Shown here in pieces: positions 1-23,000 of a DNA stretch of 64,000 bases. The DNA is from an uncultured Candidatus Sumerlaeota bacterium (GTDB lineage: Bacteria > Sumerlaeota > Sumerlaeia > UBA8349), in the NCBI GenBank assembly GCA_942493245.1, contig OW818685.1, positions 4,770,973 to 4,834,972 on the forward strand, in the 5' to 3' direction. Every line of letters starts with the position of its first letter. The first letter of the stretch is position 1. Below the pieces are notes generated by a model. It did no database searches and was not told the DNA's origin. It saw only the letters and a program-made list of their open reading frames with translations. Position numbers and translations under genes: made by a program.

Positions 1-1730
1 GGCTCGGGGTCCGGTTCCTGTTTCTGAAAGGCCGCCACCACTTCCTCGAGATACGCTGCCGCGTCGAACATTACATCGAACACCTCGTCGCGCAGTTCGA
101 GGGCGCGGCGGCGCGCGCGCTCCAGAAGCGACTCGACCTTGTGGGTGATCCCCGCCGGGCGTTCGGCGCCGTACATCGTCAGGTTGCCCTTGATCGAGTG
201 CATCAGGCGGAAAACCGAGTCGGCGGTTTCGGTGTCGCGTTTCTCGTCGAGCGCCAGCAGTTCGCGATTCAAGCGGCCCAACATGGATTCGAGTTCCTGC
301 AGGAAGACCGAGTCGGGCAGCGCGCCTTCTCCCGCGTCCTCTTCCCCCGCCGCGCGGCGTTCGAGCGGCATGTGGCACGGCTCATCCGCACCTGCCTGGG
401 ACATCTCGCGCTTCGGTTTTTCGACGGCGCCGGACGGGGATACACCTCCCTTGAAACGCCCCACGGCGCTCCGGGCGTCCACCTCGACCTCGCGGCCCAG
501 AGTCAAGGTGAACAGTTCCGGCAAGTCAATCACCATGCCCAGCTGCCGCCCGCTCAGGGTCGCGGTACCCAGAAGCCCCTCGACCTTCAGCCCTTCATCA
601 AATTCCGAAATCACAATTTTCTGCGGGCTAAGGAAGTCGGAAACGCAGTAGGCAAGCCGTTCTTTCTTGTGCTCGATGATAATCACGCGCAACAGGTCGT
701 CCTGTACCTCGAGGGGCGCCTCGCCAAACACCGCCATCAAATCGAAAAGAGGCAGAATGTTCCCCAGATACATGATCGAACGGGCCCGACCCGTCGTGGT
801 CGTCACCTCCTTCACATTCACCGAAAGCGACGCCACAACCGCCGAAATCGGGAAAACAAACGTGTTGTTGCGCGCCCGCACCAGCAGCGAGTCGGAAATG
901 TTGACCGCCGTCACCAACGGCATCACCAGTGAAAAGGTCGAACCGCGTCCCGGCACACTCTGGACCCGCGTCTCGCCTCCGATGGCGGCCATCGCGTCGC
1001 GCACAACGTCCAGCCCCACGCCCCGACCCGACGTTCCAGTCGTTTCGCGAGCGGTCGAAAAACCCGGCTGGAATAGAAATTCGAACAAGGTATCCTCGGC
1101 CAAGCCTTCGGCTGTGGCTTCATCCACCAACCCCATCTCGACCGCCTTGCGCCGAATGGCGTCGAGTTGAAGCCCCCGGCCGTCGTCCACCACCTCAATG
1201 ATCGTGAAATTGTCCACGTTGCGCACCCGGACTGTAACCTCGCCCACCGGATCTTTTCCCACCGCCTGACGCGTTTCGCGATCCTCAATGCCGTGGTCTA
1301 TCGCATTGCGGATCTGGTGAGCCACCGGGTCGTAGATGCGCTCGGAGATTTTCTTGTCTATGCAGATCTCCTCGCCCTCCAGTTTGAAACGGATCGGCTT
1401 GCCCAGCCGCCGCGAGGTATCGCGCGCCAGCCGCCGGAACCGCGCAAACAGGTCCGACATGTCCACCGTCCGGACATCCGTCACCAGGTTATGGAGATCG
1501 GACGAGATGCGTGAGGAGGTGATCGCCAGATCCTTGGCGTCCTCGGACAGCATCCGGGACACGGACATGCCTTCGTGCAACTGGTGACTCAGGGCGTTCA
1601 GGTTCGCGCTGACAATAATGACCTCGCCCGCCAGTTCGAGCATCTTGTCCAACCGGCTCAGCCGCACCACCATGCTTTCTTCCCCCACGCCCACCAGGGA
1701 CGCGCGAACAGGTTCTCTGCTTTCAGACAT
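1..1730 (-). CDS. cheA: CheA-like chemosensory histidine kinase, C-terminus beyond window start. Domain order in the visible part is P3 dimerization, HATPase_c (P4), CheW-like (P5), then Hpt.
   Basis: My own translation of the minus strand from ATG at 1730..1728 runs with no stop to position 1. N-terminus MSESREPVRASLVGVGEESMVVRLSRLDKMLELAGEVIIV is the CheA P3/P4 junction. HATPase_c motifs are present (DDGRGL; GRGVGLDVVRDAMAAIGGETRVQSVPGRGSTFSLVMPL). A CheW-like block follows (LLVRARNNTFVFPISAVV...GRQLGMVIDLPELF). Near window positions 60-330 there is an Hpt domain (FLQELESMLGRLNRELLALDE...FRLMHSIKGNLTMYGAERPAGITHKVESLLERAR). The six-frame track does not list this ORF because it has no in-window stop. 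Confidence 0.8.
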   Translation of the reverse strand, partial: MSESREPVRASLVGVGEESMVVRLSRLDKMLELAGEVIIVSANLNALSHQLHEGMSVSRMLSEDAKDLAITSSRISSDLHNLVTDVRTVDMSDLFARFRRLARDTSRRLGKPIRFKLEGEEICIDKKISERIYDPVAHQIRNAIDHGIEDRETRQAVGKDPVGEVTVRVRNVDNFTIIEVVDDGRGLQLDAIRRKAVEMGLVDEATAEGLAEDTLFEFLFQPGFSTARETTGTSGRGVGLDVVRDAMAAIGGETRVQSVPGRGSTFSLVMPLVTAVNISDSLLVRARNNTFVFPISAVVASLSVNVKEVTTTTGRARSIMYLGNILPLFDLMAVFGEAPLEVQDDLLRVIIIEHKKERLAYCVSDFLSPQKIVISEFDEGLKVEGLLGTATLSGRQLGMVIDLPELFTLTLGREVEVDARSAVGRFKGGVSPSGAVEKPKREMSQAGADEPCHMPLERRAAGEEDAGEGALPDSVFLQELESMLGRLNRELLALDEKRDTETADSVFRLMHSIKGNLTMYGAERPAGITHKVESLLERARRRALELRDEVFDVMFDAAAYLEEVVAAFQKQEPDPE

Positions 1731-2160
1731 GGCTCATGGCCCTTTCGACGACCCGCTCGGCCAGCGGCGCCGTGAACGGCTTCGTCAGGTAATCGTCGGC
1801 GCCCATGCGCAACGCGCGCACCACATACTGGGCGTCCCGATGAGTCGAAATGACAATAACCGGCAGATGCCGCAGGGCCGGGCGGCGGCGGATTTCCTCG
1901 CACAGTTCGAACCCGTCCATCTCGGGCATCACCAGGTCGGTGAAAACCACATCCACCGGTTCCCGCTCCAGCACTTCGAGCGCTTCAAGCCCATTACCCG
2001 CCTCGAGGATTGTCATGTGGAGCGTTTTCAACACTTGAATTACGGCCTTGCGGATGGTCGCGTAATCCTCGACCACTAAGACGCGCAATTCCCGTTCCAT
2101 CCCGGGCCTGACAGCCTGACCCGTGGCAGAATCCCTCATATCATCTGGTGGCGTTTCCAT
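1723..2160 (-). CDS. CheY-like single-domain response regulator (receiver)
   Basis: ORF 1723..2217(-). REC motifs VLVVEDYA, VVFTDLVMPEMDG, VIVIST and TKPF. I prefer ATG at 2160 (METPPDD...), preceded by GGAGG 7 nt upstream. Alternative starts are 2100 and 2217. The stop TGA at 1725..1723 overlaps the CheA ATG (ATGTCTGA). Confidence 0.85.
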   Translation of the reverse strand: METPPDDMRDSATGQAVRPGMERELRVLVVEDYATIRKAVIQVLKTLHMTILEAGNGLEALEVLEREPVDVVFTDLVMPEMDGFELCEEIRRRPALRHLPVIVISTHRDAQYVVRALRMGADDYLTKPFTAPLAERVVERAMSHV

Positions 2161-2325
2161 CTCACCGCCTCCCCTCTCCCCCGATTCGTCCCTGAAGAAA
2201 CAAACAGTCCCGGGCACGCGCCTCCCTGTCGGCGCGGCGCTCCCGAAACAAGTAATACTTCCCCTCTTCTATCCTATCGGCCACCCAAGCGGAGACCTTG
2301 AGCGTTTTCCCCATAAAAGATACCA

Positions 2326-2577
2326 GGAACTCCTCATTGTCTAGTTTGCCTTTTCTGTTCGGGGAAAACAGAAACCATTTCTCCGTCATCCCCGCGAACG
2401 CGGGGACCCAGAGAAGCGCGAACCCGAGACAAGGAAGTCGTTCACGGCTCGGAAAAATCCAAACAGGGGGTTCCGGATCTGGGTTCCCGCTTCCGCGGGA
2501 ATGACGAATGAGGGAAAACCCCGAATAACCCATATAACCGGTAACATCATCGCTCGCCTATACAACGAGGAGTTCCT
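2326..2577. mobile_element. MITE-like non-autonomous element A, about 250 bp, with 15-bp terminal inverted repeats GGAACTCCTCATTGTC / ACAACGAGGAGTTCC
   Basis: Left TIR at 2326-2341 and right TIR at 2563-2577 are reverse complements with one mismatch. The same TIR bounds element B at 54647-54924. A TAAAAGAT motif is present in both flanks. The internal cargo is the 121-bp double-hairpin repeat at 2385-2505. Confidence 0.5.
2385..2505. repeat. Family-1 121-bp double-hairpin repeat, copy 1
   Basis: GTCATCCCCGCGAACGCGGGGACCCAGAG ... CTGGGTTCCCGCTTCCGCGGGAATGAC. The two ends are imperfect inverted repeats and each end is itself a GC hairpin. A second copy lies at 36273-36392. It generates the spurious ORF peptides VIPANAGTQ and WVPAFAGMT on both strands. 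Confidence 0.75.
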
Positions 2578-2643
2578 GTAAAAGATCCGGGCCACGCGAA
2601 ACGGTTTTCGAGTGGCCCGTACCTTCTGCGATTCTTTTCAAGT

Positions 2644-4110
2644 TCAAACCAGAAGATGTTCCAGACTGCGCAGGACGATTTCCGCGCCCGCCTTCGGGGT
2701 CAGACGGTCCATGTTCAGGATCAGGTCGTAGTTTTCGGCGGTATTGATATCGGCCTTGAAGAACTGACGGATGAATTCGGCGCGTTCGGCGTCGCCCTTG
2801 GCCAGGCGGGTTTCCGCCTCCTTGCCAGACAGGCCGTAGAATTCTTCCAGATTTCTCAGCCGCTTCTCTTTCGACGCAACCAAACGCACTCGCACCCCCT
2901 CGTGTTCCTCGAGGAGGAAGGGCGCCCCGCGACCCAGCAACGTCACCCCGCCCTGAACGATGAACGCACGGGTCACCCGCACCAGCGAACGGAAATAGTC
3001 ATCGCGGCTGATGTGCTGACCCTCGGTCAACACGTCGAGGAGGGCTTGAATGGCCCCCTGGGCGCGCTGGTCCAACCGGTCAATGATCCGCGGGCTGAGT
3101 TGCATGTCTTCGGCCACATGGTCTATCAGCTTGTAGCCGATGGTTTCGTACCCCAGCCGCTCGTGCAGAACCTCGCTGACCAGCCGCGATCCCGAACAGA
3201 ACTCGGGCATGAAGGCAATGCTGGGCAAGCGGTGGTGACCGCCTCCTTCCCCTTCCCCCATTTCGTCTTCATGCCAGAATTCCTTGAGCGACTCCTGCTG
3301 GCGGTACTCCCACTTGTCAATCTGGCGGCTGATGATGTCATGCGCGGATTCCTGGCGGCCCGTGCGCCAGATCGTGTCGCTGACACACTTCTGGTGCATG
3401 ACATCGAGAGCGCGCAGGATGATGTGCGCCGTCGTTTCCGGATTCAGACGGTCCAGGTTGATGACCAGATCGTAGTTGCACGGATCGTCAATGTCGAGTT
3501 TGTAATACTTCAGACTGGCGGCGGCGCGCTCCTCGTCGCTCTGGCGCATGCGCTCTTCCGCTTCCCGCGCCCCGATGTTGTAGAACTGCATCAGGTTGGC
3601 CACCCGTTTGTCTTCCGAAGCCGTCAAGCGGACCCGGATGCCCGCGCCCGGCCCCACCAGGAAGGGCGCGCCCCGCCCCACCAGAATGCAGCCCCCCTCG
3701 TGGATGAACACGTTGAGAACATGCACCAGATGGCGGAAATAGTCCTCCTGCTCGACATAACGTCCCTGCAGCAGTCCATCCACCATCGTCCGCACATAGG
3801 ACCGCAGCCGCTGGTCCATCCGGTCTATCATCTGGCGGCGCACGTTCATGTCCTCGGCCACTTTGTCAATGAGCGAGAACCCGAAAAGCCCATACCCGGT
3901 CCGCCGGCTCAAGACCCGGCTGACAATTCGCGAGGCGCACCCAAACTTGGGCGCCAGGGTGATGGCCGGCTTGAACGGACCCTTTCGGCCCGAGGTTTCC
4001 ACCCACGGCTGCGGACGCCACCCGACCGCCTCCTCGCGCCGTTCCTCCTGATCGCGTTCCAGTTCCCACTTCTCGATTTGATGATTAATGAAATGATCCA
4101 CACTGCGCAT
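2644..4110 (-). CDS. Tandem-duplicated cytidylate kinase-like family protein (two Cytidylate_kin2-like modules, P-loops degenerate)
   Basis: 488 aa with two homologous halves. Each has ...GRGAPFL..., VRVRL(V/T)AS(K/E)(E/D)KR..., and a (R/K)QFFKADI..ENYDLILNMDRL-type C-terminus, which matches the PF13189 family pattern. The P-loop GSGG is replaced by GCAS / CSGS. ATG at 4110 is preceded by AGGGGGT. Confidence 0.8.
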   Translation of the reverse strand: MRSVDHFINHQIEKWELERDQEERREEAVGWRPQPWVETSGRKGPFKPAITLAPKFGCASRIVSRVLSRRTGYGLFGFSLIDKVAEDMNVRRQMIDRMDQRLRSYVRTMVDGLLQGRYVEQEDYFRHLVHVLNVFIHEGGCILVGRGAPFLVGPGAGIRVRLTASEDKRVANLMQFYNIGAREAEERMRQSDEERAAASLKYYKLDIDDPCNYDLVINLDRLNPETTAHIILRALDVMHQKCVSDTIWRTGRQESAHDIISRQIDKWEYRQQESLKEFWHEDEMGEGEGGGHHRLPSIAFMPEFCSGSRLVSEVLHERLGYETIGYKLIDHVAEDMQLSPRIIDRLDQRAQGAIQALLDVLTEGQHISRDDYFRSLVRVTRAFIVQGGVTLLGRGAPFLLEEHEGVRVRLVASKEKRLRNLEEFYGLSGKEAETRLAKGDAERAEFIRQFFKADINTAENYDLILNMDRLTPKAGAEIVLRSLEHLLV

Positions 4111-5002: not shown

Positions 5003-8000
5003 TCATTCCACGATACCTGCCGCGCTCGTGTGGATGATAAACTGCGTGACAGGCGGTTGAGCCGGTTTGAACTTCGGCCTGGCTTTCGGATCGGTCGAAA
5101 TGAAAGCCTCACCCTCGATCCGGCCCGTTTTCGACGTGGTGATGCTCTTGATCCCGCCGGTGTAGACGGCCGTGCCGTCCTCCTGGAAGCCCGCGTAGAA
5201 CTGGCCCGACACCCCGTTCAGACCCGACAGAGTCGTGATACAGGAAATCGTTCCGGTCTTCGGCTGCGCCAGCACTCGCATGCGGCTCGGTTCCCACGGG
5301 AAGCCCAGGTAGCCGCCCAGATAGACGGTCCCCACCTTGACGGTCTTCGCCGACAGAAGCGCGATCGGTCCCGCGCTCTTCAACTCCGACGTCCTCAGGT
5401 TGCCCTGCAGGATCCGGGTGCCCACCGTTGTGGTGGCATAGGCGCCCCCGCTCACCATCACCTTTGCGACCGGCCCCTGCGTACCCTGCAGTAAGCCGAG
5501 CGCCACCGGTCCACCGGTGGATTGCACCAGCGCGAAACTCGGCGCGGAGAGCCAGGTGTCCTGAACCGACAGGAGCGTTCCGCCCTTGACATCCTTATCC
5601 ACGTCGCCCAGGGCGCCGATACCCGCCTGGCTGAAGCGCTTTTCCTTCGTGGCCGAGTCTTTGAACTTGCGCGTGGCCACCTTGACGTACTTCACCGGCT
5701 GCGAGGTCAAAAGGCCCTCGAGCACTGCGCCGTTGATCGCCACCGACAGGGGAATACTTCCCACCGTCTGAATGGAGGTGACGCCAAACTCGGTAAAGTT
5801 CGTCCGCGACGAATTGTATGACGCCGTGATCTTCAACGTCCCGACGTCCCCGCCCTTGTAATCTTCCAAGCCGTTGGCCGCTGTCACCGACTTGACCGAA
5901 GAGGCCTGCATCCGGTAGATCGGCGCATCCGAGGCGAACGTGCCAAAGAGGCCCGGAATCACAACCGACGGAATCTCGCGCGTTTCGAGGTATGCGGTCC
6001 CCGGTTTCGCCACCGTGCCACTCGCCGTTCCGGCAGGCAGTCCCTTGGGCAGCCACTTGATCTTGATCGCGCTCTTGTCCGTGGTGCCGTTCAGGGTCAG
6101 GCCACCCGTGGTCGGAGTATCGAATGCCAGCGTGATGTCCTTGCTGTACGTGATCTTATACGCGCGCAGTGGCAATGTCGGGAGGAAGAGCCACCCCTGA
6201 GCCGGACCGCCCAGAGCGCCGGCGTTTTCACCCGCCGCGCCGTTGGCCGCCTGCACCCAGTAGTAGTACGTCTGACGCCGCTTCGCGGTCACATCCTCGA
6301 AACTTGCGGAGGACTGCCACAAACTGATCGCCTGCGGCGTGTCGGTCGGCGATTCGGCGCGATAGACCCGGTAGTAATACCCGTAACCCGCCAGGGGTTG
6401 CCACGAAACGTTGACCCTGCTGCCCCATTCGCCCTGACTGGCCGCCAGACCGCCCGGCGTCGGGATCGGCGCCACATAGAGCGTCGTGAACGTCCAGACC
6501 GGTCCACTGGTACTGCCAATGGCGTTCTTCGCCACCACCTTCCAGTTGTAAACCGTGTTCGATTCCAGTGAACCCGACGGCGTGAACTGCGTTCCACCCA
6601 GATCGCTCGCCATCGGCGTGGACGGCGTCGGATCGGCCGGTTTCCACAGATAGAAGTCGTGGCTCAGAGCGTTCGAGCCGCCACTCCAGTAGAACGTGGG
6701 AGTCAGCGACACATCCACCGCCCCATTCGACGGGTTGGGCCAGCTGGGCGCGCCCGGCGCCCCGACAACCCGCGTGACAAACGTGAAAATGTCACTCGAC
6801 GTCTGTCCCGCCCAGTTCACCGCCGTGACCTGCCAGGTGTACGTGGTCCCTCCCTGGAAAGTCGGACTGTTCCACCAGTAATAACTCCAGGTCGCCGATA
6901 CCGTCGTGGGGGTGGCGTCGCCCTGTTTCCAGACCGACAGAATGTAACTGTCGGCGTTGGCCGCGTCGTTCCAGTCGAAGGTGGGATCTTCCAGCACGCC
7001 TTCGGCGTTGTTCTCCGGCGAAATCAACTGCGGTTTCTCCGGGGTCACAATCGCCCGCGTCGTGAAACTCCACTCCGGACCCGGCGTTTGCCCCACCATG
7101 TTGCGAGCCACCACCTGCCACTTGTACGTTGTGGCGCCCTCGAGCATCGCGGACGGCGTGTAGTGACTCGCGGTCAGATCGGTCACGGTCGGTTGCGCCG
7201 GTTTGGCGTCCGTGGACTTCCAGAGGTACAGATCGTACTTCGAAGCCGCCGACGAGTCGGCCCAGTCCAGCGCGGTCGTCGGGAGAACCGCCGTGGCCCC
7301 ATCCGACGGAGTCGGTCCGCCCGGCTCACCGGGCAGCGCCGGCGTCTCGGTCGTGAACGACCACAACGCCCCGAGCGTTTCACCCTTGGCGTTCCCGGCA
7401 GTCACGAACCAGTAGTACTTCGTATTGCCCTCGAGCGCTCCCGCCGGTTTGAACGAACTGGCGGTCAGCCCCGACGTGGTCGGAACCGTCGGACGAGGTT
7501 GCGCGGACGGCCACAGGTACACGTTGTACCAGAGCGCATCGGTCGCATCGGACCAGTCGAGCGTCTTATCCACCGACACGTTCGTTTCACCCACATAGGG
7601 GGATGGACTGTCGGGAATCACCGGCTCGGGCGAACCCACACGCTGGGTACGGAACGTCCAGACCGGCCCGACCGTATCGCCCGTCGCGTTGCGCGCCACC
7701 ACCTGCCACTTGTACACCGTGTTGTACGCCAGATCGCCCGGATCGTACTCGGTCGAGTAGGCATAGTTGGGCCAGCCGGGTTTTCCATCCACCTCGCGCC
7801 AGACATAAATCAGGTAGTAACTGCCGGCCCGCGCGGACGCTTCCCAGGCCAGATTGATCGCCACCGAAACGCCGGTGGAATTATCGGGTGGGTTGAGCAG
7901 CTTCGGTACGCTCGGCGCGCCCTCGATATGGGTCCGGAAACTCCACTCCGGTCCGGCCTTCTGGTTGGTCTTGCCATTGACCACCACCTGCCACTGGTAC

Positions 8001-11000
8001 TCGGTGTCGAAGTCGAGATCCGCCGTCGGCTTCCACGCCGGGTCAGTCAAACCTGTTATTGTCGGCGCGACCGGCTTCGCCTGAGTCTTCTTCCACAGGT
8101 AGAGATCCCAGGAAAGCGCTCCGGCCGAACGGCCCCACGTCATCGTCGCATCCACCGGAATGGAAAGCGAAGCGTCTTCCGGGTAGGGCGAGAAGGGCGC
8201 CTGAATGTCCGTGCGGAACGTCCAGACCGGTCCTTCCGTCGAATCCACCCGGTTTTTCGCCACCACCTGCCACGAATACGTCGTCAGGTAGTCGAGGGCG
8301 GCGGGCAGCGGATACTGACTGACCGACAGCGCCTCGGCGGTGAACGTGGTGGGCACAGGTTTGTCGGCCCGCCAGAACTTCAGGTCGTAAGATGTCGCCA
8401 TCGGCGTGTCGGCCCAGTCCAGTTGCAACGCGACCGATGCGGTCGTTGCGCCGTCCGCCGGAGCGGGTTGCGCCGGGGTCTCGGGTTTCAGCAGGATCGT
8501 CGTGAAGGTCCAGGTCGGCCCCTCGGTCCCCCCCGCCGTGTTGCGCGCCACGACTTTCCACTTGTAACTGGCGTCGTAGGGCAACGTCTGCGGCGGCGAG
8601 TACTGACTCACCGTCAAACCCGACGTGGTGGGCGACCAGGGTTGCCCTTCCGTCGCTTTCCAGAGATAGACGTCGTAGGTCGCCACGCGCTTCGAGTCCG
8701 CCCAGTCCAGCGTCAAGGTGACGGGCGCAGTGGTTGAATTGTCCTCGGGGTTGGGCGTCGTGGGCGCTTCCGGCGCAGTCAGATAGATCGTCCGGAACGC
8801 GGATTCCGTACTCGCCACCGTTCCCTGTGCGTTGCGCGCCACCACCTGCCAGCGGTAATCCGTCCAGTAGGCCAGACCGCCCGGTACCTGGAAGGTCTTG
8901 CCCATCAGCCCCGCCTGAGTCGGAACAACCGGTTTGGCCTCATTCGACTTCCACAGATAGAAGTCATACGAATCGGTCAAGCCGCCGCCGCTCCAGTTGA
9001 AGGTCACATCCGACTCGACGTTGGTGGCGTTGTTGGCCGGGGTCAGCAGAATCGGGCGTTCGGGCCAGATGGACGGCGCAAACGTCACCTGATCGACCCA
9101 CCCGGCGTTACTGCCCGCCGTCCACCACCCACGCGTATAGACCCACTTGAGCGAGTGCGATCCGGCGGGCACCTCGACGGTCTGTGAGGTCCAGCCCACT
9201 TCGCCGTTGATCGAGACCTGTTGCGCATCGTCAATGTAGAACCGCAGCGTGGTGTCGGTGTGCGCCGAGAGTTTCCACCAGAACGTCAACGTGCGATGCT
9301 CGGTCGTCGAGATGTCGGCGCGCAACGTGCTCGGCACGTTATAGCCCGTGTTGCCGCTCTGCGCCGCATCAACGCCGTCGTGCGTCACCTCGGTCTGATA
9401 GAACCACGTTGCGTCCCCTTCGGTGGACCATGTCATGGGCAGCAGGTTCGCATCCACCGAGTTAGCCAGATTCTTCGGATAGACGCTCAACAGCCACGAT
9501 TCTTCGTCCGAACCCAGTTCGTTCGTGGCGCGAATGGTCACCGTGGTGACCCCCTCGGTCGCCGAAGCCCACGAGACCACGCCGGTGCCGGCGTCAATCG
9601 TCATGCCCTGCGGACCGGCCACCAGCGACCAGGCGATCGGCTGCGCGCCCTGAACCATCTCCGGTGTCGGACCGGTATAAGATTCACCGACCGAGACCGA
9701 AGCGTCGGGAATTTCAACAATGACCGGCGCCTGCGGATCAATGATATTCAGAGTCACCTGCGTCTGCATCGCGGTGCCAAGCTCCACATACCGCGCGGTC
9801 AATGTGACCTGGGATGGGGTCGGAGCATCCGGATCAATCGTGATCTCGACTCCGTTAATCTCAACATAATCCGCCGGAGCCGCCTCGAACTCGATCGTCG
9901 AGGTCACGTTCAGACGCGTACCGTTCACATAGTTGACAAACGCGCGTCCGTTGATCACATTGCCCGGACTGACGTTGATCTCAGTCCCTTCGGCCATCGC
10001 CTTCGACACCACCCGACCCACTCCGTCTTCCACCTGCGCGGAAAGCGCCTTGAGGGTCGAGGACGTCTCGGGGAAGTCCAGATAGACTTCGAGGTTGCCC
10101 GCCAGGACGCGGTGATAGAGCGACACGTAGCCCTCGCGCCAGCCGATCATCAGCGTCTGGTCGTTGTTGCTGAATCCCACCGACGCTGCGCCGATGTTCT
10201 CCTCACCCATACCCGAAGCCGGCAGGAACTCGCGGATCGTCGAGCCGTCGTTCATGTTGATGAGCCGCACCGGGCGCGCCGATTGCCCCGGCTTGCTGCC
10301 GCCCGAAACACCCACCAGCGCCAGCGTCCCATCCTCGGAAATGGCCACGGTGAAGGACGCGTCCACCGACTCGCCCATCAGCGCATCCACCGTCACACTC
10401 ATGATGAAAATATCATTGACCAGAGAGGGACCGGCGACCAGGTCCGAAATGTCGTAGGTCTCCAGATAGTACATGTGGGTCTGTTCAATATCGTCTCCCG
10501 AGACCTCCTCGGTCACGGCCACACACCGTGTGCCCAGTTCGTTCACAAACAACTGCAAGGGCGAGTGGCGCGTCTTCATGCCGTTGAACAACAGACCCGC
10601 GCTGTTCCAGATCCCGATAAACCGTTCATTGTACATGCCGCCCAGGAAGTGGTTCTCGAGGCGGAAGTCAAGAGCGCCCGCCACACGGGATTCCTCGCGA
10701 ATCTGGCTCAGGTTCGCCAGATCCCACAGCCGCACCTTCGAGTCCGCCGTCACCATCCGCGTTCCCTGCGGCGAGATGGCAAACGCAGACGCCGGGGTAT
10801 GCAGCGTTTTCCAGAGCAGATCGTTGGCCGTATCGTACATGAAGATCGAAACGCCCACGCGCGTGGCCAGTTTCGAACTGTCGTTGGTAAAGTCCATGCC
10901 CTCGAACTTCGGGTCAATGAAGTACCCGGTTTCCATCAGGCGCGTCGCGGTCATATCCACCCGGTTTGTCCCCGGTGTCCACTTCATGGTCCGCTTCGGA

Positions 11001-14000
11001 TCCTGCGTGAAGACCGTCTTGCCGTCTCCGGAGATATGCGCGCCGCTCATCGGGAAACTGTGCGCCAGCGACCCTCGGAAGATCCCGCGTCCGACTTCCC
11101 AGAACTGGAACGACGAAAATTCGCTGATCTTTTCTTCCTCGCCGATGTCCATCCCCATGAACGACACACCCACCGTCTTGCGGCCCGTCGTGCGGCCCGT
11201 CACCACATACTGACCCGACGGATCCACCAGGTAGTGGACAATCTTGCCTTCTGCCGGCGGGTGGTCCAGCCACCGCAACAACAGCCCGTCCTTGTTATAG
11301 ATCCAGGTCGAAACCGGGTCGTTCGTGGCCACATACAACTGTTCGCCGATCACCTTGGCCGCCGTCACAGCCGCCGGGTACTCGTAACGGTCTATCACCT
11401 CGAGGTCCGACTTGCGCCAGCGCGTCAGGGTCTGGTCTTCACCCGTCGAATAAAACCCGTCCGTCCCGAGGTAACCCACCGCCGTGACCGGCTTGGTGTG
11501 AACCAGCAGACCGCTCGGGCGCACCCGGGAACCATCCGTCCGGTTGAACACCATGACGACGTTATCCGCGCCACCGCTCAGCACCTGCGTGCTGTCGAGC
11601 GCCACACTCTGCGTCTTGCCCGTGTGGGCCGGCTTGAGCCATGTGAAGACATTCGTCGAGAGGTCGAACAAACCCACGCGTCCGATCTCATCGCCCACCG
11701 CCAGCATCGCCGTAGCGCCCGAACCCGAGAGCGCCGCACAAACAATTCCCGCATCGTGCGTGAACACGGTCAACGGTGTCGAGGTCGGCACATCCACAGC
11801 CCAGGTCTTGATCGTACCTTCGCCGCCCACCGTCACAATACGCGCCGCGTCCAGATACGCCACGAAGGATATCTGTCCTTCGTGCGCCATGATCACCTGT
11901 TTGATCTGGTACTGCGACGGCGTCACCCCCACCTCGTAGAGGTTGATCGCGCCCGAGCTGCTTCCCAGGGCCAGATTTTTCCCATCCGCGCTGTAGGCGC
12001 CGGACAGACCGTACCCGCCACCCGTCACCTGATAGCGTTCCCACTCGGTCTTCGGGCCGTACAGCGTCACCACCGTGTCGGTCGTGATCGTCTCGCCCGA
12101 CAGCGCCGTGTAGGAACCCGTCACGAGGTAATTGCCCGGACGGGCCGTGTAGTTCACCTTGACGTTCTGCCCCAGAATCTCCATATCCTCGGGCTTGTCC
12201 GCCGTGAGCGTCACATCGGCCGAGACGTCGGCGCTGTAGCCGTCGTCCCACCACGCCGTGTACCGGATGTTACGGAACACGCCGGGGTTCAGGGACAGGT
12301 GATTCGGATCGGCCACCAGCGACACGACCCGGGCGCCGTCCTCATTCACCAGCACCCGCGCTTCGCCGGTCAGGTTCCGGCCACTCTCGCGGTACTGGGC
12401 GCGCAGGACAAACTCACCTTCGGCGCCCGGAGCCACTGTTACGACATTCCCCTCGAGGGTGGCCATCGAGGCCGGTTCGACCTCGATCGTCACCGACGTG
12501 GCTTCCACGCCGCTGCGCGGCGTGATATCGCGCCGGGTGCTGTCGTCATAGACCAGTTCGACCGTGTAGTCCTGGCTCTCGCCCGGTTTCAACACACGCA
12601 GGCTCGGGGTGATTTCGATGCGATCGGCCTGCGAGCGCTCGTACGTTTCCACGTAGTTGTAACTCCAGGCGATCATGATCAACGAGTCGTTGCGCGCGAA
12701 TTGGACCGACCGCACCCGCACGTCCATCAGGCTCGAGTGCATCGGGTAGAAGTAGCGCAGAATGCGGCCCGTCTTGACGTCGTAGAGCCGCACGGTGTTG
12801 TCGCCGCCGATCAACAACAGCGACCCATCCTGCGAAAGCGCCGCATCGTAGTTTGTCCCCTCGAACCGGTACAACCCCACCGGCAGCTGTTTCGGCATGT
12901 CGTACATCTGGACGCCGGTGTGCGCATCCACCATCCCCACTCGTTTGCCGTCGGGGTGGTAAAGCATCTTGTAGGGCGTGTAGGGATTCGTGTTGGTCAT
13001 GTTGTACAGCACGGCGTTCGGGTCATTGGTGCGCAGGGTGATGAGCGACTTGTTGTTGGCGATCGCAAAACCCCACTTCGATCCGTCGCCGCTGAACGCG
13101 CTCTGGTAGTTGCCGTCCGGGCTGGCGTAGTTCGCGAACAGGTCACCCGTCTTGGCCGAATAGAGACGGTCGCCCAGCGCCGCCAGATTGCCATCGGGCG
13201 ACAGGCTGATGTTCGTGTAGTAATAGGTTCCCAGCGTGCGGTCGAGCACCTTCGAGAAGCCTTCGTCACTGACCGCTTCGATCTGGAAACGCCCACTCCA
13301 TTCGTTCGTGATCCACGCCACTTTCGAGCCGTCGTTCGATACATCGAAACCGTAAATTCCATTCAACCCGTCCGAGCGCCGGATCGTCTTGCCCGATTCG
13401 CGCTGCAACAGGTTCATGCCCCAGTTGGTCTCATAGAACAGCCGCGCGCCGTCCTGCGAAAGTCGCGGACGAGCGCTGTTCCAATCCGAAAAGTATCCCT
13501 GCGGACCATACTGCCCGACAAAGGAACCGTCGGAAACCAGGAACACCGCCGACGGCGCCCAGCCGTTCCCGTTCGAATTCACCATCACCCGCTGACCCGC
13601 GTCGTCGAACGTCACGTTGTCGAGGCTGCCGCCCCAGTTCCCACCCGACACGGTATTCAGGTTGATCTGATAAAGTTCCAGTCCCAATTCGTCGTACATC
13701 CGCAACATGGCCTGGTTACCCGTTCCGGTAATCATGCAAATGCGCTTGCCGTCGAACGAAACCGCGGCGCCCTGCGCATTCTGGCCCGTCAGAGAGATCG
13801 TACGCACCGGCATGTGGGTGGAGATTCTCCAAAGTTGGACCGTGGCGTCAGTCGAAGCCGTCATGAGGTGGCTGCCGTCACCCGTGAAACCCACCGCCGT
13901 CACCGCCTGGCTGTGGCCCAGGAACGCCTGCCCCACCTGTACGCCCGTTTCCGAGTTCACCAGGTACGCAAAATTGTCGCTCGTTCCCACCGCAATGGTC

Positions 14001-17000
14001 TGCCCATCCGGCGAGTACGCAATCGCGTTGACGGTCGCATTGCCCGGCACAAACTCCCAGAGTCGCCGCTGCGTGTCAATGTCAAGCAGCATTCCCTTGC
14101 CCTCGGTGATGACCATCAACTTGCTGAAGTCGGGGGACGGCACCGCATAGGTCACCAGCAGGTCGGCGAACATCGCCGAACGCAGCGAACCGGACGTGTT
14201 CAAGTCCCAGATATAGACCGCGCCATCGCGGCTCACCGTCACCGCCGCCGAGTCGTCGCTCGAGAAACCCGCGTACCGCACCTTGTCGTAGTGGTCCTTG
14301 AGCATGATCAACGGCGTATTCGACTCGGAATCGAACACCCAGGCCGAGCCCGTGTCGTAGCCCAGAATCACCCGGTTGCCCGCGTGGTTGAAGCGCCCGC
14401 TCACCCGTGTGCCACCCGGGCTGCGGTAGGTCAGCGTCCACTTCATGTTCTGGTTGGGGTTGTCGCCCAGCCCGCTGCCGACCACAAGCCGCGCCTCGGG
14501 CGCCGTGCCCGAAACCATCTGACCCGCGCCCACCCCGATTCCCTCCGACCGGATCGAGAACGTGATCTCGTCGCCGTTCTTCAGGTTCGCGAAGTTAGCC
14601 ACGGCGATCATGTCGCCGCGCGAGACAAAGGACGCGTCGAACAGGAGCGTTCCCGCGCCCGTCTCCGTGATCTGCAACTGGCCGTCACCCACCACCAGTT
14701 CGTCGCCTGCATCCACAACTCCGTCGCTGTTCTTATCCCAGTACACCCGCGCACCGCTGATGTCCGCGATCTCGATCCCCGTCATGTTGGACATATCGAG
14801 TTGGAGCGACTGCGCCTCGATGCCGGCGGGAGCCAGTTGGAACCCGAGAATCGGCACGTCGTCCTGAGACGCGCTCGCGCCGAAATTCGTCGGCGCCTGC
14901 CAGGCCGCGCTCTTCGAGAGCTGTAATGGATACTTCACAATATGCGTCACCGCGTCCGCGGCGCCGCTCACCGTAGCGGTCCCCACCAGTTTGATATCCG
15001 CGGTCGAGAGTCCGATCTTGAAACGGTTGCCACCCGACAGGTACGCAAAATCCGCCACCACCAGGTAAGCGCTTTCGGTCGCGAACGTCTGGCGGCTGAA
15101 CTCGATCGTACCGCTGCCACCCGAAACACTCACCTCCGGCGCACCGCCCACAGTCCCCTCGCCCGCATCCACCACGCCATTGCCATTGGCGTCAGCGATC
15201 AGGCTCACGCTGCGAATCTTCTGCGCGGTCAGGCCCTCAACGTTCGACAGACGCACGGTCAGGCGCTCGACCTGTTTCGTCGCATCGCCCTTCAACTGGA
15301 AGCCCAGCAACCGCACATCCTGCTGCGCGGCATAGGCGTTCAACTGGTCGGACAACTGTCCGTCCACCGGATTCGACAGAATCACCGCCGGACCCGCCAC
15401 GTGCCGCGCCGAATCCGCTTCCGTCTCGATACCCGTCCCCGCCGGAACCCGGCAGAACCGGTCGTTCAGTGACACTGTAAATCCCTGCCCCGCAACCACA
15501 TCGCGCGCGTCGGCCAGCAGAATGTACGCGCCCGACGGAGAATTCTCCGACACGAACGGGTCGGAGAAAACCACCGACTGGTTCGAGCCTTCCGTCAACA
15601 ACAACCCCGCTCCGCCCACAGTCGTCTGTTCCGAACCGCTGATGCGCCCGTCGCCATTGGTGTCCACCGCCAGGCGGAAGTTCGCCATCTGGCTCCACTG
15701 GAAGTTCCCGGCAGCCTCGCTCAAACGGAACCCGACCTCACGCACCTGCGACGCCTGGGGCGTCACCCGGAACGCCAGCAGTTCCACCGCCGAGAGCGCC
15801 GAACCCACTTCCAGATTGGTGCGTTCCTGACCCGTCACCGGGTTCACGAACCGCACCATCGGGAAAGACGGCTCCAGACTCAAGCCCGTGTAATTCACAT
15901 AATCGGTCACCGGATCACCCAGACCCGCCGCGTTGCCCACATGCCGCGGTCCGGTCGCAGAACCCCACCAGTTGTCCGGCGCGTCGAAGGCCGTCTGCGT
16001 GTTGTTGTACACCGCATAGTTCGAACTGTTCTCGAAGAAGTTCCCCGTCAGGGTCGGCGCAGTCGCCATCGCACCGGTGACCCCGTACGTGTTCCCCGTC
16101 CAGATCGTGTAGGCGTTGCCCACGAACCCACTGCGGGTCACTTCCCAGTTTCGATCCGTCTGGAACAGCAACGCCATCGGCGTTATCGTGCTCTCACAAT
16201 TCACCGACGTGAAGAAACAGCCGTCCGCGTACAACTGACCGCCCACGAGACTGTTCGCCGTATCCGGCGGCGCGACCCACACATGCGCCGCCCACCAGTT
16301 TATGTCGGTTGTTACATTGGCTTCATGCACGTAGAAGCTGCATGTTTTCAGGTTCGCCGTCCCACCGGCGTACACTTCCAGCGGACTCACTCGCGAGGAG
16401 GCGTAATACAATCGGGCCGCGCGCCCCAGGAACGCCGTCCCGGTGGCCTGCATCGTCCCATAGACCCGGATCGACGCCACCGAATCCACTTCGACGTCCG
16501 TCAGGTTCAGCGTACCGCCCGCCTCCACCACCAGCAACCGGTTCGGATGGTCCGTGACCAACGTACTGCTTGTTTCGAACGTCAGCGTCCCACCGGCCTT
16601 GACCACCACCGTTCCATTGCTGGAATACTGATCCGCATTGGTGTTGTCGAACAGGATCTGTGTGCCTTTGTTGCGTACCACCGCCGTGCCTGTCACATCC
16701 CCCCAGATCCGCACGTTCGACTGGCAGTCCTGGAACTGGCACACTCCCACGTTCTGAACACCCGTGCCGAACTTCCACCCGATGCCGTAGCTGAACCCTC
16801 TGAAGGAACAGGGAATGGGCGTCGCCTGCGTGGTGTCGTCCCCGATGCTCGCATTCGGCAGCAACCGCATCTGGACGCCAAACGATGTCCGGTTGCCGCT
16901 GAGCGTGTTGAGCGACTCGAACGAGCATCCCTTCACCTGAATCGAACTCGTGTCCGACGACGTCACAATCGCCGACCATCGCCAGTTATCCGTATAATTG

Positions 17001-20000
17001 CGCTCGATGGATCGCAGTGAACAGCGGTTCAACTCCACATTGCCGCCGTTCAGAACTTCGACCCCGTTGAACCGCCAGCTGTCGTAATACTCCGCGCGTG
17101 TGTAGAACTGGAAGTCCGCGTCAGACGCCACCAGCGTCCCACTCACCTTGATGGCCGTGAAATCCAAAGACCCGCCGTGTCGCACACGGACTCCCGGCCC
17201 GATCGTCAAAGTGACTCCAGCCGGAACCACCAGCTGCGACGTGATCAGATAATCCTTGGTCGTATCATTCCAATTCGTATTCGCCGCCAGAGTCCCTCCG
17301 ACGACGTTCTGGGCATCGTCGTCCATCTCGACCACCTGGACCTGTTTCGACACGACCCCAACCGTTGAACCGGACTCCGCGATCTGGAACTGGGTGGTTC
17401 CATTCGCCGAGTCTCCATCCGCCGCTGCCGCCAGCGTTACGGCCACCGGTGTGTTCCACGCAGACGGTTGAATCTGGAACGTCGCGCCACTCGAAACCGT
17501 CAGATCGGCGTCGCCCCCGGCCACCGCCGTCACCGCCAGCGACACCGGCGCCGAAGGCATCGCGCTGAGCCACACGTGGAAAACCGTCGTGCCCGCTTCA
17601 GCCACCGGCATCTCATCCAAATCGGTCATGACCTCAACCACAGCCGCCACGGCGGGCGAGGCATCCGCCACCCCCATCACTTCGGCGGTCAACAGGTCGT
17701 TGTCGCGGTTCACATCCTCAACCACGCTCGCATCATCGCTCCGCACGTCAAACTTCGCCGGCGTTTCCGGCGACACACTGCCCGCAGGCAGATCCACCGG
17801 CACCTCGGCGCTCGTACCCGCCGCCAGCGCCGGGATCGAGGCCGTTGCCAAAGCCGCGCCACTCGCGCCTGCCGGGCGCACGCCCAGCGTCGCCACCGGC
17901 GACTCCGGTCCACCCGCGTTGCGCACCCGCACCACCAGCCGCGCCGAACCATCCGCCTGCGCCACAGACGAAACCACTTCCATCGGACTGAGGTCCGTGC
18001 CACCCAGCGTCACCCACTGCTGGTTGTTGTATTCGTTGAATTCCGTCACGGTCGAATCCGCGTCCACCACGGCGTACAGCGTGTGCGCGCCCACCGGTTC
18101 GGGGATCGTCCAACTCAACGCGACCGTCACCGACGTGCCGCCCTCGAACCAATCGCCCAGTACCCGCCGCGCCACTTCCACGCCGCCCGCCGCCGGGTTG
18201 CCGTCGTACACCACCACCGAGGCGCCCTGCACGGGCAGGTCGCCCGTGTTGCGCACCAGAATCTCGAAATCCACCACTTCGCCCGAGAGCAACGGGCCGG
18301 CGGAATAGGTCAGGTCGCCCGGCAGAATCGCCAGATCCTTCACCAGCGCCCGCTTCACCACCGCCAGATCCGCCTGGCCGCGCGTCGGCACGCCACCGAT
18401 GGTCACCGACCCGCCGCCATCCAGCGCGATCGTTTCGGTTGTCAACGAAACCGCCTGGCGGTTGTACGCCACGGTCAGGTTCCCCAGATCGTCCCACGCC
18501 GGGGCGTACGCATACTCGATCGCCGCGTCCTGGAACAGCCGCCGATCCTGGCTCCAGACACCGGAGGCCGGATCATAGACCGTGTACATCGCGTTCGTCC
18601 CCTCGGCCGTCTGCGCCTGCCAGATCAACCCAAGGTTCCCGTCGGGATTCGGAGCCAATGCAAAGTCCATGAAGCCCATCGAGTTCGAGTTCGCCCGCAC
18701 GAGCGAGGTCGTCGTCTCGAAATTCTGGTTCATCACCAGGTCGCTGCCCATCTGCCACACCAGATACGTCTGGCCCGTAGCCGTCACGGCGGCCCGGATC
18801 GAATCGTCCAGAACCGCGTTGTTCGTCAACCGAGCCGGCGCGCTCCACGATGAGCCGTTGTATTTCGTGTAATACACTTCCGTGTCTTGCGTCGAGCTGG
18901 TCGCCAGATCGAGTTCGCGCGTATAGGCGTACACGGCCAGATTCCCCGCGCCCGCCAGCGTCTCCGCGCGCTCGCCGGTCAGGTTCGCCACGAGCGCAGC
19001 CGGGGCCGACCAGGTATTCGCATTCGCGTCGAACCGCGCCCAATGCGCCGTCGTCGGAGCCGCGTCGCTCCCGACGAAATAATTTTGCGCGTTCGACTTC
19101 CACGTCAGCAACACGCTGCCGTCCGCCATCGGCCCGCACAACTGCGGACACTGGTCCAGGTACGCGTTGTCCGTCAACGCCACCGGTGTTGACCACGTGT
19201 GGGCCGAGTGGTCCCACCGCGCCCAGACGATCTCATACAGCGGCATGATGACGTCCAGGTTCGCGGTCGTCAGGTTCGGATCCTTCACCCGTTCCCACAC
19301 GGCCACCGCGTCGCCATCGCCGTCGAACGCCACCTGGGGCGCGAACTCACCCTGAGTGTTCGTCTGGATCGGCGCCGGGGCCGACCAGGTTGTCCCGTTG
19401 TAATACGTCCAGTGAATATCCGCGAACTGCAAGTCCGCCCCACCATTGTCCGCCGAATAAAGCAACATCAACGTCGAGCCGTGCGAGGCCAGCGCCGGAG
19501 AGGAATCCGGGTACACATTCGTCACCAGCGTCAGGTCCGCCTGCTCCAGACCCGACGTCACACTCTCTCCGTCCGCCTTGACCAATCCCTCCGCCGCAGC
19601 CCGCACCGGCTGCGCACCCGACGTTCCCAGCATCCGGAAACGATCCAGCGGCGTCTCGCCCGATTCGGCAGACTGAATACCGACCGATGCGCCCGAGGCC
19701 ACAAACTGGCTCGGACCGTTGGCCAGGTAGGCCCGCGACACGGGCCGCTGCCCCGTTACAGAAACGCCATCGGCCAGGAGCGAATTGGGACTGAAGAGCG
19801 CGACGATCCCTTCGCCTCCCTCTGACGGGTAGGTCAGGAACGGATACTCGCCCTTGACCACTTCCATGTCTTTCCACTTGAAGATCGCCCGGACCAGCGC
19901 CTTGAACTCGATCCCCTTGAATTCCGGAATCTGCAAGATGCGCGTTTTCAGCGCCCCCTCGCCACCCACCGACAGCTCCGCCGTCAGCGCCTTATAGAGG

Positions 20001-23000
20001 CGTGGGTTGTAAACCGCGCTGAGCGACGCGCCGAGCTCCGTATCCAGGTTCTCGATCCGCACCGGGGACACGCACAACTGCGCCTCGCCCTTGCCACTCA
20101 AGCCCCCCACAATGTCGAGCCGCTGGATCGAATTGATGTCGAATTTCCACTTCTTCAGATAATCCAGGAACCGGGCAATCTGACCACCCGGGAAGAGGTC
20201 CGTCAGGAGAAACGAAATGATCGTGTCCTTGAACGCGACCTCCAACCCCACCACCGCCTTCTCGAACGACACCCCGGCCAGCGGTGTCGCCTTGCCGCTC
20301 ATCGTGAACGACGGCTTGATCTCCACCTCTTTTTCTCCGTAACGGAACAGCACCTTGCGGTGGTTGTTCCGGTCGCGCTCATTGCCCCGGTAATACTTCT
20401 TCCCTTCGGACAACTTCTTCGCATCGTCGTCCATCGAGCCATTGATCCCCACCGACCACTCGCCGTTGGTCAGTTTATAGATCAAGCCCAGGACCACTTC
20501 GACTTCCGGCCCGAGATAGCCGAGGAAGGGCAGGTTCTTTGTGTTTTTCAGTTTGACCAGCGTCACCTCGCCGCTCAGGAACAGATCCAGGTCCGTCGGC
20601 GTCGTAGGAATCATAGACAGAATCAGACGGAACAGTTCGGGCAACGCCACCACGTTGATTGGCTCGACCCGCTCGGCCTTGCGGCCTTCCTGGTCCTCGG
20701 CCACCACCGTGATCGCGTAACGCCCCAGATTCGTCACGCCCGAGAACCACTGGCTCACGTCGAACTCGAGTTCGAAGAAGTCCGGCGCAGGAGTCCCCAC
20801 TTCAATTTCTTTTGTCTCTTTCGTATCGTTCGACGAGAACGTGACCTTCTTCGGGGTGCCCCCGTTCCAGTTCACGTTCACCACATACTTGTCCCTGAAA
20901 TTGCTCAACCCGGCCAGCAACACGCTCTCGCCGCTGCCGTAGCTCAGTTTGCCCGCCGCGATGGACGGTCCCACCGTCTGCTCCGGCAATGTCAGGTCTA
21001 TCACCACCTGTGCCCCGTTCGACGGAGGCTCGATCGGAAGGGCGTTCTCCCCGTAGCCGTTCTTCGACACCGTCACCACCCGGGCGTCGCTCTCGACCAG
21101 GTCTGCCAACTGGTACTTGCCGTCTGCGCCGCTCAACACCTCGCGCGACGGCGGCTGATTCTTGCGAATCCGCGCCGCCACCGTAGCACCCGCCACCGGC
21201 TTGCCGTCTTTGTCGGTAATCGTTCCCACCACGGTGAACGGTTTGGCCACGGTCAGGACCGACAGGCTCTCGCCCGTCAGTTTCTGTCCCCCGCGCGTGT
21301 TGGCCGAAATGCTGTACCGGATCGGGTACGACCCCGGCTCGAGCGTCTTCCCCTCGGGCAGGGTATAGGTTGCCACCCACTCACCCGCGCCGTCGGACCA
21401 TTGCAGTTTCCCTTCGCCCCGCGCCGTGCCCGAGTTGTCCGTCAGTTTCCACGTAAATTCGTCCGCGTTCTGGTTCGTGATCGGCTGCTGGATCAGATCC
21501 GTCGCTCGTGCCCGGACGTCTAGCGTCCGCGTCAGACGGTTGTAGTTCTCCGACGATTCGATCGTTACACCCGACGAAAGGGAACGGTAATAGACCCCCG
21601 CTCCTTCCTTCCAGACGTAATCCGCGGCGCTCGCGCTGCGCGCCGCCATGCGCTCGAACGCCGGCGACCCTTCACTGTCCGAAACACTCTTGGCCGCCTT
21701 CAGGTCGCTCGCGTTGCACGAATAGATCTGAGCCGGTTCGCCCGCCACACCTTCGTACATCCAGGCAAAGAATTCCTTGCCAAAGCCCCCCGCCACCTCG
21801 GGATACCGCGCCGCATACGAAAGCAGCGTCGGCTCCCTGACCCCGGTTCCCCCCAGGTTCACCGGGTCGCCATTCGACTCGATCCGCTGCCAGTACATCG
21901 CGTTTGAGGTCGAACACCACACAATATCCATCTGACGCGCGCCGCTCGAAGCGATCTGCGGACCGCCGTAGGTCACCAACACATTCCGATCGGGAGAAAT
22001 CTCATGGTAGAGTTTCCCCTTCCACTTCAACCCCTTGCGCGCATGGACCACCGACCAGGTTGTCCACGCCGGGTCAGGAGCCGCCCCCTTGGCGTCTTCC
22101 TTGTGCCGCCATACCACGTGCAGGTTGCCCGTCGAGTCGTATGCCAGGTCCGGACGCCCGTAGCCATCGAACGAATAACTCCCGAACGCCACACCAAACT
22201 TGCGCGAGAACGGCGCCCACCGCGTTTCGGTAATCGGATTCCCATCGGTCCCCAGTTCGACCGTCGCGATGAAATTGATGCCGTTGGGCGCCGGGGTCGC
22301 GTCATCGTACACCCGCCCCTCGCACACCACGATCGGCTGTCCCGCCGGGGTCAAGGCAATCGCCGGCCAATTGTATTCCTGGTTTTTGTATGTCGAGGAC
22401 GGATAGATCTGGAACGCGCGCGACATCTTGTACACGCCGTCTTCGATCCGGATGTAGTTCAAAATGCTGCGGCTCGTCGTCGCGTGGACCACATGCACGA
22501 CGCCCGCCTTGTCCACCGCAATGCGCGGCACCAGCACCGCCGAACTCGACGAGCGGTAGATTTCCTTGGCCGGCACCACCACCTGGTAATCCTTGTCTAT
22601 CTTCGTGTACCACAGGTTGTTGTTGGCCTTCCAGATGATGTGCGCATTCCCCGCGCCGTCAATCGCCATATCCGGCACCGACGCGTTCTGTCCCTCGGGG
22701 CTGACCAGTTTCGCCGGATACTGGTCGTTATCCAGGATCGTCAGCGTGTGGACGTTGTTCACCCCGATGTCCACATTGCCCGGCGAACCGGTCACCGTTG
22801 CCACAATTGTCTCTTTCTTTTCCTTCTCCTGATCGTCCACAATCGCGAAGTTCAGGAAACTCGAACTGGTCCCCTTATAAATCGTCACCGTCATCTGAGA
22901 CGGGGGGTAGTAATCCTTGTCCGCCTGCGCCGTACCACTCAGCGCGTACTGAATCGCGATGTCTTCCGGAGCGACCTCCGACAACGTCACCGTCGCCGTA

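Follow-up and report, generated by a model that had tools for sequence, protein, structure and literature searches.

The histidine kinase CheA, as known from Escherichia coli and Thermotoga maritima, consists of five domains, with the phosphotransfer domain P1 (a histidine phosphotransfer, or Hpt, domain) and the adjacent P2 domain positioned N-terminally to the dimerisation domain P3, the ATP-binding kinase domain P4 and the CheW-like coupling domain P5. Free P1 can be phosphorylated in trans by the P3-P4-P5 core of canonical CheA, and P2 is dispensable but speeds the transfer. The 2023 CheA survey of Berry, Andrianova and Zhulin (PMC10782961) describes split CheAs, namely CheA3 and CheA4 of Cereibacter (Rhodobacter) sphaeroides, as well as separate Hpt genes. 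The hybrid kinases ArcB, BarA and TorS carry the Hpt on the C-terminal side of the ATPase, but possess a HisKA H-box and an internal receiver which feeds the Hpt. Here we describe a CheA gene found in a stretch of 64,000 nucleotides (nt) from an uncultured Candidatus Sumerlaeota bacterium (GenBank assembly GCA_942493245.1, contig OW818685.1, positions 4,770,973 to 4,834,972 of the forward strand; the whole stretch analysed is hereafter called the window). Its product carries all five domains of classical CheA in a circularly permuted order. A first-pass annotation, made from the sequence alone, had proposed a circular permutation; this is borne out for the entire P1-P2 module, which stands at the C-terminus of a rotated five-domain protein.

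The open reading frame (ORF) lies on the minus strand, which the first-pass annotation had left unstated, and runs without a stop from the ATG at 1730-1728 to position 1 of the window over 576 codons. A TGA at 1736-1734 is located in the same frame two codons 5' of the ATG, so that the ORF cannot reach further in that direction. A search of protein databases retrieved a protein of 716 amino acids (aa), P0001, which is 100% identical over all 576 aa visible in the window. The part of the gene beyond the window thus encodes the remaining 140 residues, comprising the last part of P1, a short linker and a P2 domain of ∼100 aa; the earlier expectation that further domains might follow past the window edge proved right. 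The elements of the gene are as follows (AF2, AlphaFold 2; pLDDT, predicted local distance difference test).

1..1730, minus strand: permuted CheA gene, first 576 of 716 codons (translation, match to the 716-aa P0001, Pfam)
1470..1670, minus strand: P3 dimerisation domain, a helical hairpin, residues 21-87 (Pfam, AF2, Foldseek)
915..1469, minus strand: P4 ATP-binding kinase domain, residues 88-272 (Pfam, conserved motifs, Foldseek)
498..899, minus strand: P5 CheW-like coupling domain, residues 278-411 (Pfam, AF2, Foldseek)
318..497, minus strand: disordered P5-P1 tether, residues 412-471, ∼60 aa (AF2 pLDDT about 30)
3..317, minus strand: P1/Hpt phosphotransfer domain, residues 472-576 visible, ending at residue 589 past the window (Pfam, phmmer, AF2)

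Pfam matches on the 576-aa fragment were judged against the curated cut-offs and all four exceeded them: H-kinase_dim at residues 21-84 (25.4 bits, cut-off 23), HATPase_c at 138-272 (6e-16), CheW at 282-408 (6.3e-12) and Hpt at 475-563 (3.8e-10). Together with the matches of full-length P0001 they give the order P3-P4-P5-P1-P2. P3 is modelled as two helices (24-50 and 59-87); P4 carries the N box (HQIRNAIDHG), G1 (DDGRG), PGFST and G2 (GRGVG) motifs; P5 is all-beta in the AF2 model, with a pLDDT of about 85. When compared with known structures using Foldseek, P3-P4-P5 matched T. maritima CheA (1b3q) at 2.8e-30, P3 also matched 4xiv, P4 matched solved CheA P4 structures with TM-scores (normalised to the target) of up to 0.97, and P5 matched the CheA P4-P5/CheW complexes 2ch4 and 3ur1. 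The core superposes on the crystal and cryo-electron tomography structures 1b3q, 3ja6 and 6s1k at about 30% identity. From the N-terminus, the AF2 model of the full-length protein shows the P3 hairpin, then P4 and P5, a disordered stretch (414-471), P1 as five helices, a short linker and an alpha/beta P2; with a predicted TM-score of 0.47 the relative placement of the domains, that of P1 and P4 included, is unreliable.

All five domains of canonical CheA are thus recognisable by sequence and fold, including the HSIKG phospho-histidine motif of P1, a T. maritima-type P2 and the ATP-binding motifs. Every element of the CheA core as defined by Berry et al. (P1, P3, P4 and P5 all present; PMC10782961) is found in the protein, and P2 lies next to P1, as it does in canonical CheA. 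The difference resides in the order: only 20 residues precede P3, both P1 and P2 follow P5, so that P1 hangs from the C-terminal end of the coupling domain.

The identity of the relocated module was examined domain by domain. The segment FRLMHSIKGNLTMYGAERPAGITHKVESLLERAR (residues 507-540; 111-212 of the window, minus strand) contains the HSIKG motif with the phospho-acceptor His511, the codon of which occupies 198-200. The phmmer matches of P1 were to CheA P1 domains of E. coli, Salmonella and T. maritima (8c5v_C at 9e-12, 1i5n, 1tqg). His511 aligns to the known phospho-acceptor His48 of E. coli CheA and E533 to the Glu in the E. coli motif 'THLMENLL'. For the C-terminal domain, the best sequence match of its profile in the PDB was 1u0s_A, the T. 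maritima CheA P2-CheY complex (E 0.006), and P2 modelled alone with AlphaFold reached a pLDDT of 92.8. The Pfam P2 cut-off of 23 bits is exceeded in eight family members (P0006, 27.0; P0022, 24.6; P0121, 29.2; P0125, 36.4; P0126, 36.2; P0127, 28.1; P0131, 25.9; P0135, 76.8).

An Hpt located C-terminally to the ATPase is typical of hybrid kinases, and the domain could serve as a relay, like the Hpt of the unorthodox ones, with the primary acceptor elsewhere, for example on a separate Hpt protein; some relatives do encode an extra single-domain Hpt protein nearby. We regard this as very improbable. The protein has neither a HisKA H-box nor an internal receiver, its Hpt resembles CheA P1 in its best PDB matches, HSIKG motif, paired Glu and five helices and is followed by P2, and most related loci, including those of close relatives, lack a separate Hpt gene. 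The C-terminal Hpt is best understood as the P1 domain of this CheA.

To the first-pass annotation, an in-frame stop between the CheW-like and Hpt regions, or an upstream P1 joined through an unnoticed frameshift, would have spoken against the permuted order. A frameshift could in principle have fused separate genes for a P3-P4-P5 core and a P1-P2 protein, such as make up bipartite CheAs, or have cost the gene an upstream P1, and the low complexity and poor conservation of the P5-P1 linker are what such a junction might look like. However, more than 100 clusters (90% identity) drawn from NCBI, JGI, ENA and Logan assemblies and spanning several phyla are collinear with the query over 94-100% of its length, and relatives at 89-91% identity from independent assemblies retain the single ORF across the CheW-Hpt junction. 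The Hpt after the CheW-like domain is, as first proposed, part of one unbroken frame, and this holds in more than 100 independently assembled proteins. The linker is always in frame, although its length varies (40-70 aa). A hidden upstream P1 was also sought: six-frame searches of the 64-kb window with a hidden Markov model (HMM) of the family P1 and with the motif H[ST][ILVM]KG yielded no Hpt other than the one at 314..9 of the minus strand (145.6 in the HMM search; the next match had an E of 3.9), and the idea of a hidden upstream P1 was rejected, given also the stop upstream of the ATG. An assembly artefact is therefore excluded by the collinear clusters and the single ORF of independently assembled close relatives; the explanation is effectively refuted already, and we attach next to no probability to it.

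Conservation was assessed in an alignment of 38 full-length homologues sharing 34-93% identity. As the first-pass annotation had noted for this gene, no P1/P2 precedes the core: 1-67 residues lie ahead of P3 in the 38 proteins. Invariant residues include H138, N142, H146 and G147 of the N box, D182, G184 and G186 of G1, G223, S225 and T226 of PGFST, and G235-G239 of G2; in P1 they are H511, K514, G515 and N516 of the acceptor motif, as well as H530 and E533. The frequency of the majority residue is 0.56-0.66 in the five domains (0.63 in P4 and 0.61 in P5), but 0.29 in the P5-P1 tether (median length 58 aa) and 0.33 in the P1-P2 linker (17-24 aa). Conserved domains separated by poorly conserved linkers are the pattern expected for folded domains on flexible tethers under selection.

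In order to determine how widespread the permuted architecture is, a family profile was searched against 1.84 billion representative proteins. About 30,900 CheA-like proteins were retrieved at an E of 1e-30 or better, and among the best 150 of these, only 15 full-length representatives and 7 fragments were collinear with the permuted architecture. In the main family, full-length members (13 single-stretch matches and P0125) scored 611-1044 bits; canonical CheAs, with the core at their C-terminal end, scored 598 bits or less, and the distant permuted protein P0135 falls inside the canonical range with 536 bits. The order P3-P4-P5-Hpt-P2 was found in every representative tested with Pfam, including the 830-aa P0135. 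A neighbour-joining tree was built from the P3-P4-P5 core (155 sequences, 28 permuted and 127 canonical; 387 columns); in it, all 28 permuted sequences, P0135 among them, formed one split in 200 of 200 bootstraps, and the same result was obtained without P0135. The family is thus a clade separate from its 127 nearest canonical representatives, which suggests that the permutation arose once, long ago, and spread thereafter. Members with taxonomic names belong to Sumerlaeota, Planctomycetota (Phycisphaerae, Sedimentisphaerales), Myxococcales and deltaproteobacterial 'Adiutrix'-like lineages; relatives of the present protein at 87-92% identity include proteins named Candidatus Sumerlaeota.

Split CheAs suggest how the permutation might have come about. 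As described in the part of PMC10782961 that deals with them, they share with the permuted family a P3-P4-P5 core that phosphorylates a P1 not carried on its own N-terminus, and a core gene followed by a P1-P2 gene, the two later becoming fused, would by analogy be a plausible intermediate. The permuted family differs from them in forming a single polypeptide whose flexible tether is conserved, in having its own conserved partner cassette (see below) and in its separate position in the core tree.

P0135, from the gene cluster at 5790-13119 of locus L011 (L numbers denote related loci), is the most divergent permuted CheA; it has an unassigned insert of ∼190 aa between P5 and P1 and HTLKS in place of HSIKG. 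Behind it lies a gene which opens with a P1 of the canonical CheA-like type (FRAAHSIKG) and breaks off at the contig end. A recent tandem duplication at this locus was considered and rejected, the two Hpt domains sharing only 19% identity.

Existing models and names do not capture the family. The NCBIfam CheA equivalog models gave 246-274 bits against cut-offs of 793-950, and public records name its members inconsistently as 'CheW', 'Hpt domain-containing', 'ATP-binding protein' or 'hypothetical protein'. Full-text literature searches found no description of a permuted CheA architecture, a brief earlier mention being possible. The 2023 survey (PMC10782961), in the portion covered, treats composition, duplications and fusions of CheA rather than permuted order; the order 'CheW,Hpt' is absent from the first block of the alternative cellular function (ACF) class in its Table S2, and the portion of that table covered holds no Phycisphaerae or Sumerlaeota entries. 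The survey data set appears, from that portion, to be RefSeq-based; the permuted family consists almost wholly of metagenome-assembled genomes (MAGs). The family is rare, comes from several bacterial phyla that are mostly uncultured, is apparently undescribed, and constitutes an architectural variant of a well-known kinase rather than a new kind of system.

The permuted CheA gene is preceded by the gene for a small receiver, and the features upstream of the kinase are the following.

1730..1723, minus strand: 8-nt overlap ATGTCTGA of the CheA start and the receiver stop, a candidate site of translational coupling (sequence)
1723..2160, minus strand: single-domain receiver (REC), 145 aa (Pfam Response_reg, 5e-31)
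2161..2643, minus strand: intergenic region upstream of the operon, presumed promoter region (position)

The receiver most likely starts at the ATG at 2160, 7 nt downstream of a GGAGG, which gives 145 aa, in agreement with the 143-145 aa of several close and planctomycete homologues. The ORF-finder listing instead starts it at the GTG at 2217 (164 aa), but this extension is absent from all homologues. Its C-terminus reads ...AMSHV-TGA, the stop being contained in ATGTCTGA. The same 8-nt overlap is present in L001, L002, L004, L005, L007, L008, L010 and L013. In L006 and the contig encoding P0068 the two genes overlap by 11 nt, in L009 by 4 nt, and in L012 they are separated by a 49-nt gap. A scan of positions 2100-2700 detected no sigma-70-like promoter site on the minus strand and no terminator-like site on either strand, and neither Rfam families nor tRNAs were found in the 64-kb window.

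The active-site positions of the receiver (the phospho-Asp in TDLVMPEMDG, STH and the K in KP) are invariant in eight orthologues from different phyla, as is the beta4-alpha4-beta5 region (STHxDxxY...GADDY..KP), the receiver face contacted by P2 in 1u0s. From this conservation, P2 may dock on the beta4-alpha4-beta5 surface. The first-pass annotation had called the upstream gene CheY, or CheY-like, and noted that its stop overlaps the CheA ATG. The overlap stands, but the name CheY does not: against the NCBIfam CheY equivalog NF007901 the protein scored 78.9 bits, far below the cut-off of 189, so that 'CheY-like receiver' is the safer name, and it cannot be called an orthologue of the flagellar CheY.

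The genomic context was compared across 14 contigs, which represent 11 related neighbourhoods. All of them except the basal P0135 locus have a receiver gene (116-145 aa) ahead of the kinase, and a gene for a protein of ∼300-325 aa lies 2-60 nt after the kinase in all loci except those of Myxococcales and of P0135. In this third protein a connecting segment joins an N-terminal domain, which has invariant residues of its own, to a C-terminal receiver. The N-terminal half appears receiver-like, although Pfam does not detect it; just two PDB matches (3eq2 and 3luf) align in two stretches. In the C-terminal receiver the phospho-Asp and Lys are kept, but the acidic pair at the end of beta1 is replaced (S.S for DD). 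The full set of receiver, permuted CheA and dual-receiver-type protein is found in L001 (91% identical to the present kinase), L004/L005, L006, L007, L009, L010, L012, L013 and the P0068 contig; in L002 and L003 (89% identical) the third-position gene is present but cut by the contig end. Genes flanking this cassette vary from locus to locus, and the three genes therefore behave as a unit.

Taking these observations together, we infer a scheme of phosphoryl flow. The kinase would dimerise through P3, and P4 would bind ATP and phosphorylate His511 of P1, which would reach the active site on the ∼60-residue disordered tether from the end of P5, not from the start of P3. P2, beside P1, would dock the small receiver encoded just upstream, which may be produced in step with the kinase by virtue of the overlapping stop and start codons, and the phosphoryl group would pass from His511 to the receiver aspartate. 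The downstream dual-receiver-type protein would be a second likely acceptor, sink or output. Input would come through the intact P5 from chemoreceptors and CheW whose genes lie elsewhere in the genome. A relocated tether is plausible because phosphorylation of P1 in trans, the dispensability of P2 and the natural occurrence of split CheAs are all established. We consider it highly probable that the protein is a catalytically competent CheA-class kinase with P1-P2 moved to the C-terminus, still most likely coupled to receptors and with an output that is more likely non-flagellar.

Several observations weigh against this scheme or parts of it. The activity of the family members is predicted from sequence. 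P2 of P0001 itself scores just below the Pfam cut-off (22.2 bits against 23). The tree is distance-based (neighbour-joining) only, and its canonical taxa were chosen by similarity to the family profile. The third gene of the source genome, which would lie beyond position 1, is expected from relatives at 89-91% identity, and its receiver, having lost the acidic pair, may not be phosphorylated in the normal way. Finally, Pfam scans of the ∼30 large ORFs of the 64-kb window revealed no methyl-accepting chemotaxis protein (MCP), CheW, CheR or CheB, and most of the related loci also lack these genes nearby.

This last point raises the question of whether the kinase is coupled to receptors at all. 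It might instead act in a self-contained soluble phosphorelay outside chemoreceptor arrays, with P5 being structural or binding the N-terminal receiver-like domain of the third protein; besides the position of the cassette among unrelated genes in most loci, the window included, the near-constant presence of that third gene, with its non-canonical domain and invariant residues, would fit such a role. Yet P5 is conserved to nearly the same degree as P4, and in two lineages the receptor-coupling genes are at hand. In L012 and the P0068 contig, which come from a planctomycete-like lineage, an operon of CheW, CheR, a single-domain Hpt and CheB lies divergently upstream of the cassette; the P0068 contig further encodes, downstream, an MCP together with another CheW. 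The basal P0135 is directly preceded by CheW and CheR. Moreover, chemoreceptor genes are often scattered through genomes, far from che operons. A receptor-independent relay is therefore quite unlikely in our view. With P5 intact, chemoreceptors and CheW from other parts of the genome are still the most likely source of input, and the kinase is most likely still receptor-coupled.

The stand-alone Hpt protein of L012 and the P0068 contig (7418-7795, minus strand, in L012) has 123-125 aa and is encoded between cheR and cheB; being part of the operon divergent from the cassette, it represents a second histidine phosphotransfer protein of that system. In the P0068 contig (JGI 3300072015) the chemoreceptor gene at 14559-16286, which adjoins CheW and the permuted-CheA cassette, encodes an unusual sensor, an N-terminal beta-carbonic-anhydrase-like domain (Pro_CA) fused to MCPsignal.

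As to the output, no flagellar genes were present in the neighbourhoods examined. In L011 the order is REC-SpoIIE, STAS, REC-HATPase_c_2 (RsbW-like), STAS, CheW, CheR and then P0135, so that P0135 belongs to a cluster of partner-switching genes, which itself lies downstream of a secretin gene. In the Phycisphaerae loci (L004, L005) the cassette comes right after genes for a secretin, a PAS kinase, a receiver, HD-GYP, STAS, T2SSE (MshEN) and T2SSF proteins. Partner-switching, secretin and pilus-type genes near relatives, with flagellar genes lacking, are shared with systems of the ACF and type IV pilus (Tfp) classes. Typical CheAs of those classes, however, have an N-terminal Hpt and often a C-terminal receiver, judging from the covered portion of PMC10782961, and the permuted family has neither. 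Type IV pilus genes have been reported for all Sumerlaeota MAGs, and flagella for some subgroups only (PMC8092238). An output that is non-flagellar, or an 'alternative cellular function', seems more likely than classical flagellar chemotaxis.

A bolder interpretation would be that the cassette is an ancient self-contained module defining a new chemosensory class, in which hanging P1-P2 from P5 rewires the kinase, for example through autophosphorylation in cis or through control of P5 by the receiver-like domain of the third protein. If true, this would explain how the cassette moves between phyla without receptor genes; we consider it unlikely, and prefer the receptor-coupled kinase described above.

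Among the other genes of the window, one at 2644-4110 (minus strand), ∼480 nt upstream of the receiver gene, encodes a protein of 488 aa in which two Cytidylate_kin2 (PF13189) halves stand in tandem; other loci do not keep it beside the cassette. A single ORF of 6,489 aa (5003-24472, minus strand) looks like a giant surface or secreted protein, with four Calx-beta, one CarboxypepD_reg and one CARDB domain in the N-terminal half and several WD40 beta-propellers and one Big_10 in the C-terminal half. The gene at 31975-34479 (minus strand), which adjoins a PAS hybrid kinase at 29889-31805, encodes 834 aa in which a pyridine-nucleotide disulphide oxidoreductase is fused to rhodanese, TusA and DsrE-like domains, as in sulfur trafficking. 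A T2SSE/PilB-type ATPase with MshEN is encoded ∼45 kb from CheA (47211-48971, plus strand), followed by a PAS-PAS-HisKA-HATPase-REC hybrid kinase (49128-51359, plus strand); a similar T2SSE (MshEN)/T2SSF/secretin/STAS/HD-GYP cluster is the one immediately upstream of the cassette in L004/L005. Large ORFs of 257-813 aa at 36153-38952, 41296-44332 and 54503-56944 (various strands) have no Pfam match at E ≤0.001. The window is high in GC and many of its long ORFs overlap on opposite strands, and some of those lacking Pfam matches may not be genes.

CheA is among the most studied signalling kinases, and how P1 gains access to P4, and how receptor arrays control this access, is still debated. The permuted family amounts to a natural experiment in which P1 and P2 hang from the opposite end of the core, at P5, under strong constraint across several phyla. 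The attachment point of the P1-P2 module is thus not essential, and the family offers a ready-made variant for structural tests of tether geometry and of cis and trans models. Such proteins escape curated CheA models and automatic annotation or are misnamed by them, and their numbers in chemosensory surveys of Sumerlaeota, Planctomycetota and related uncultured groups are probably too low.

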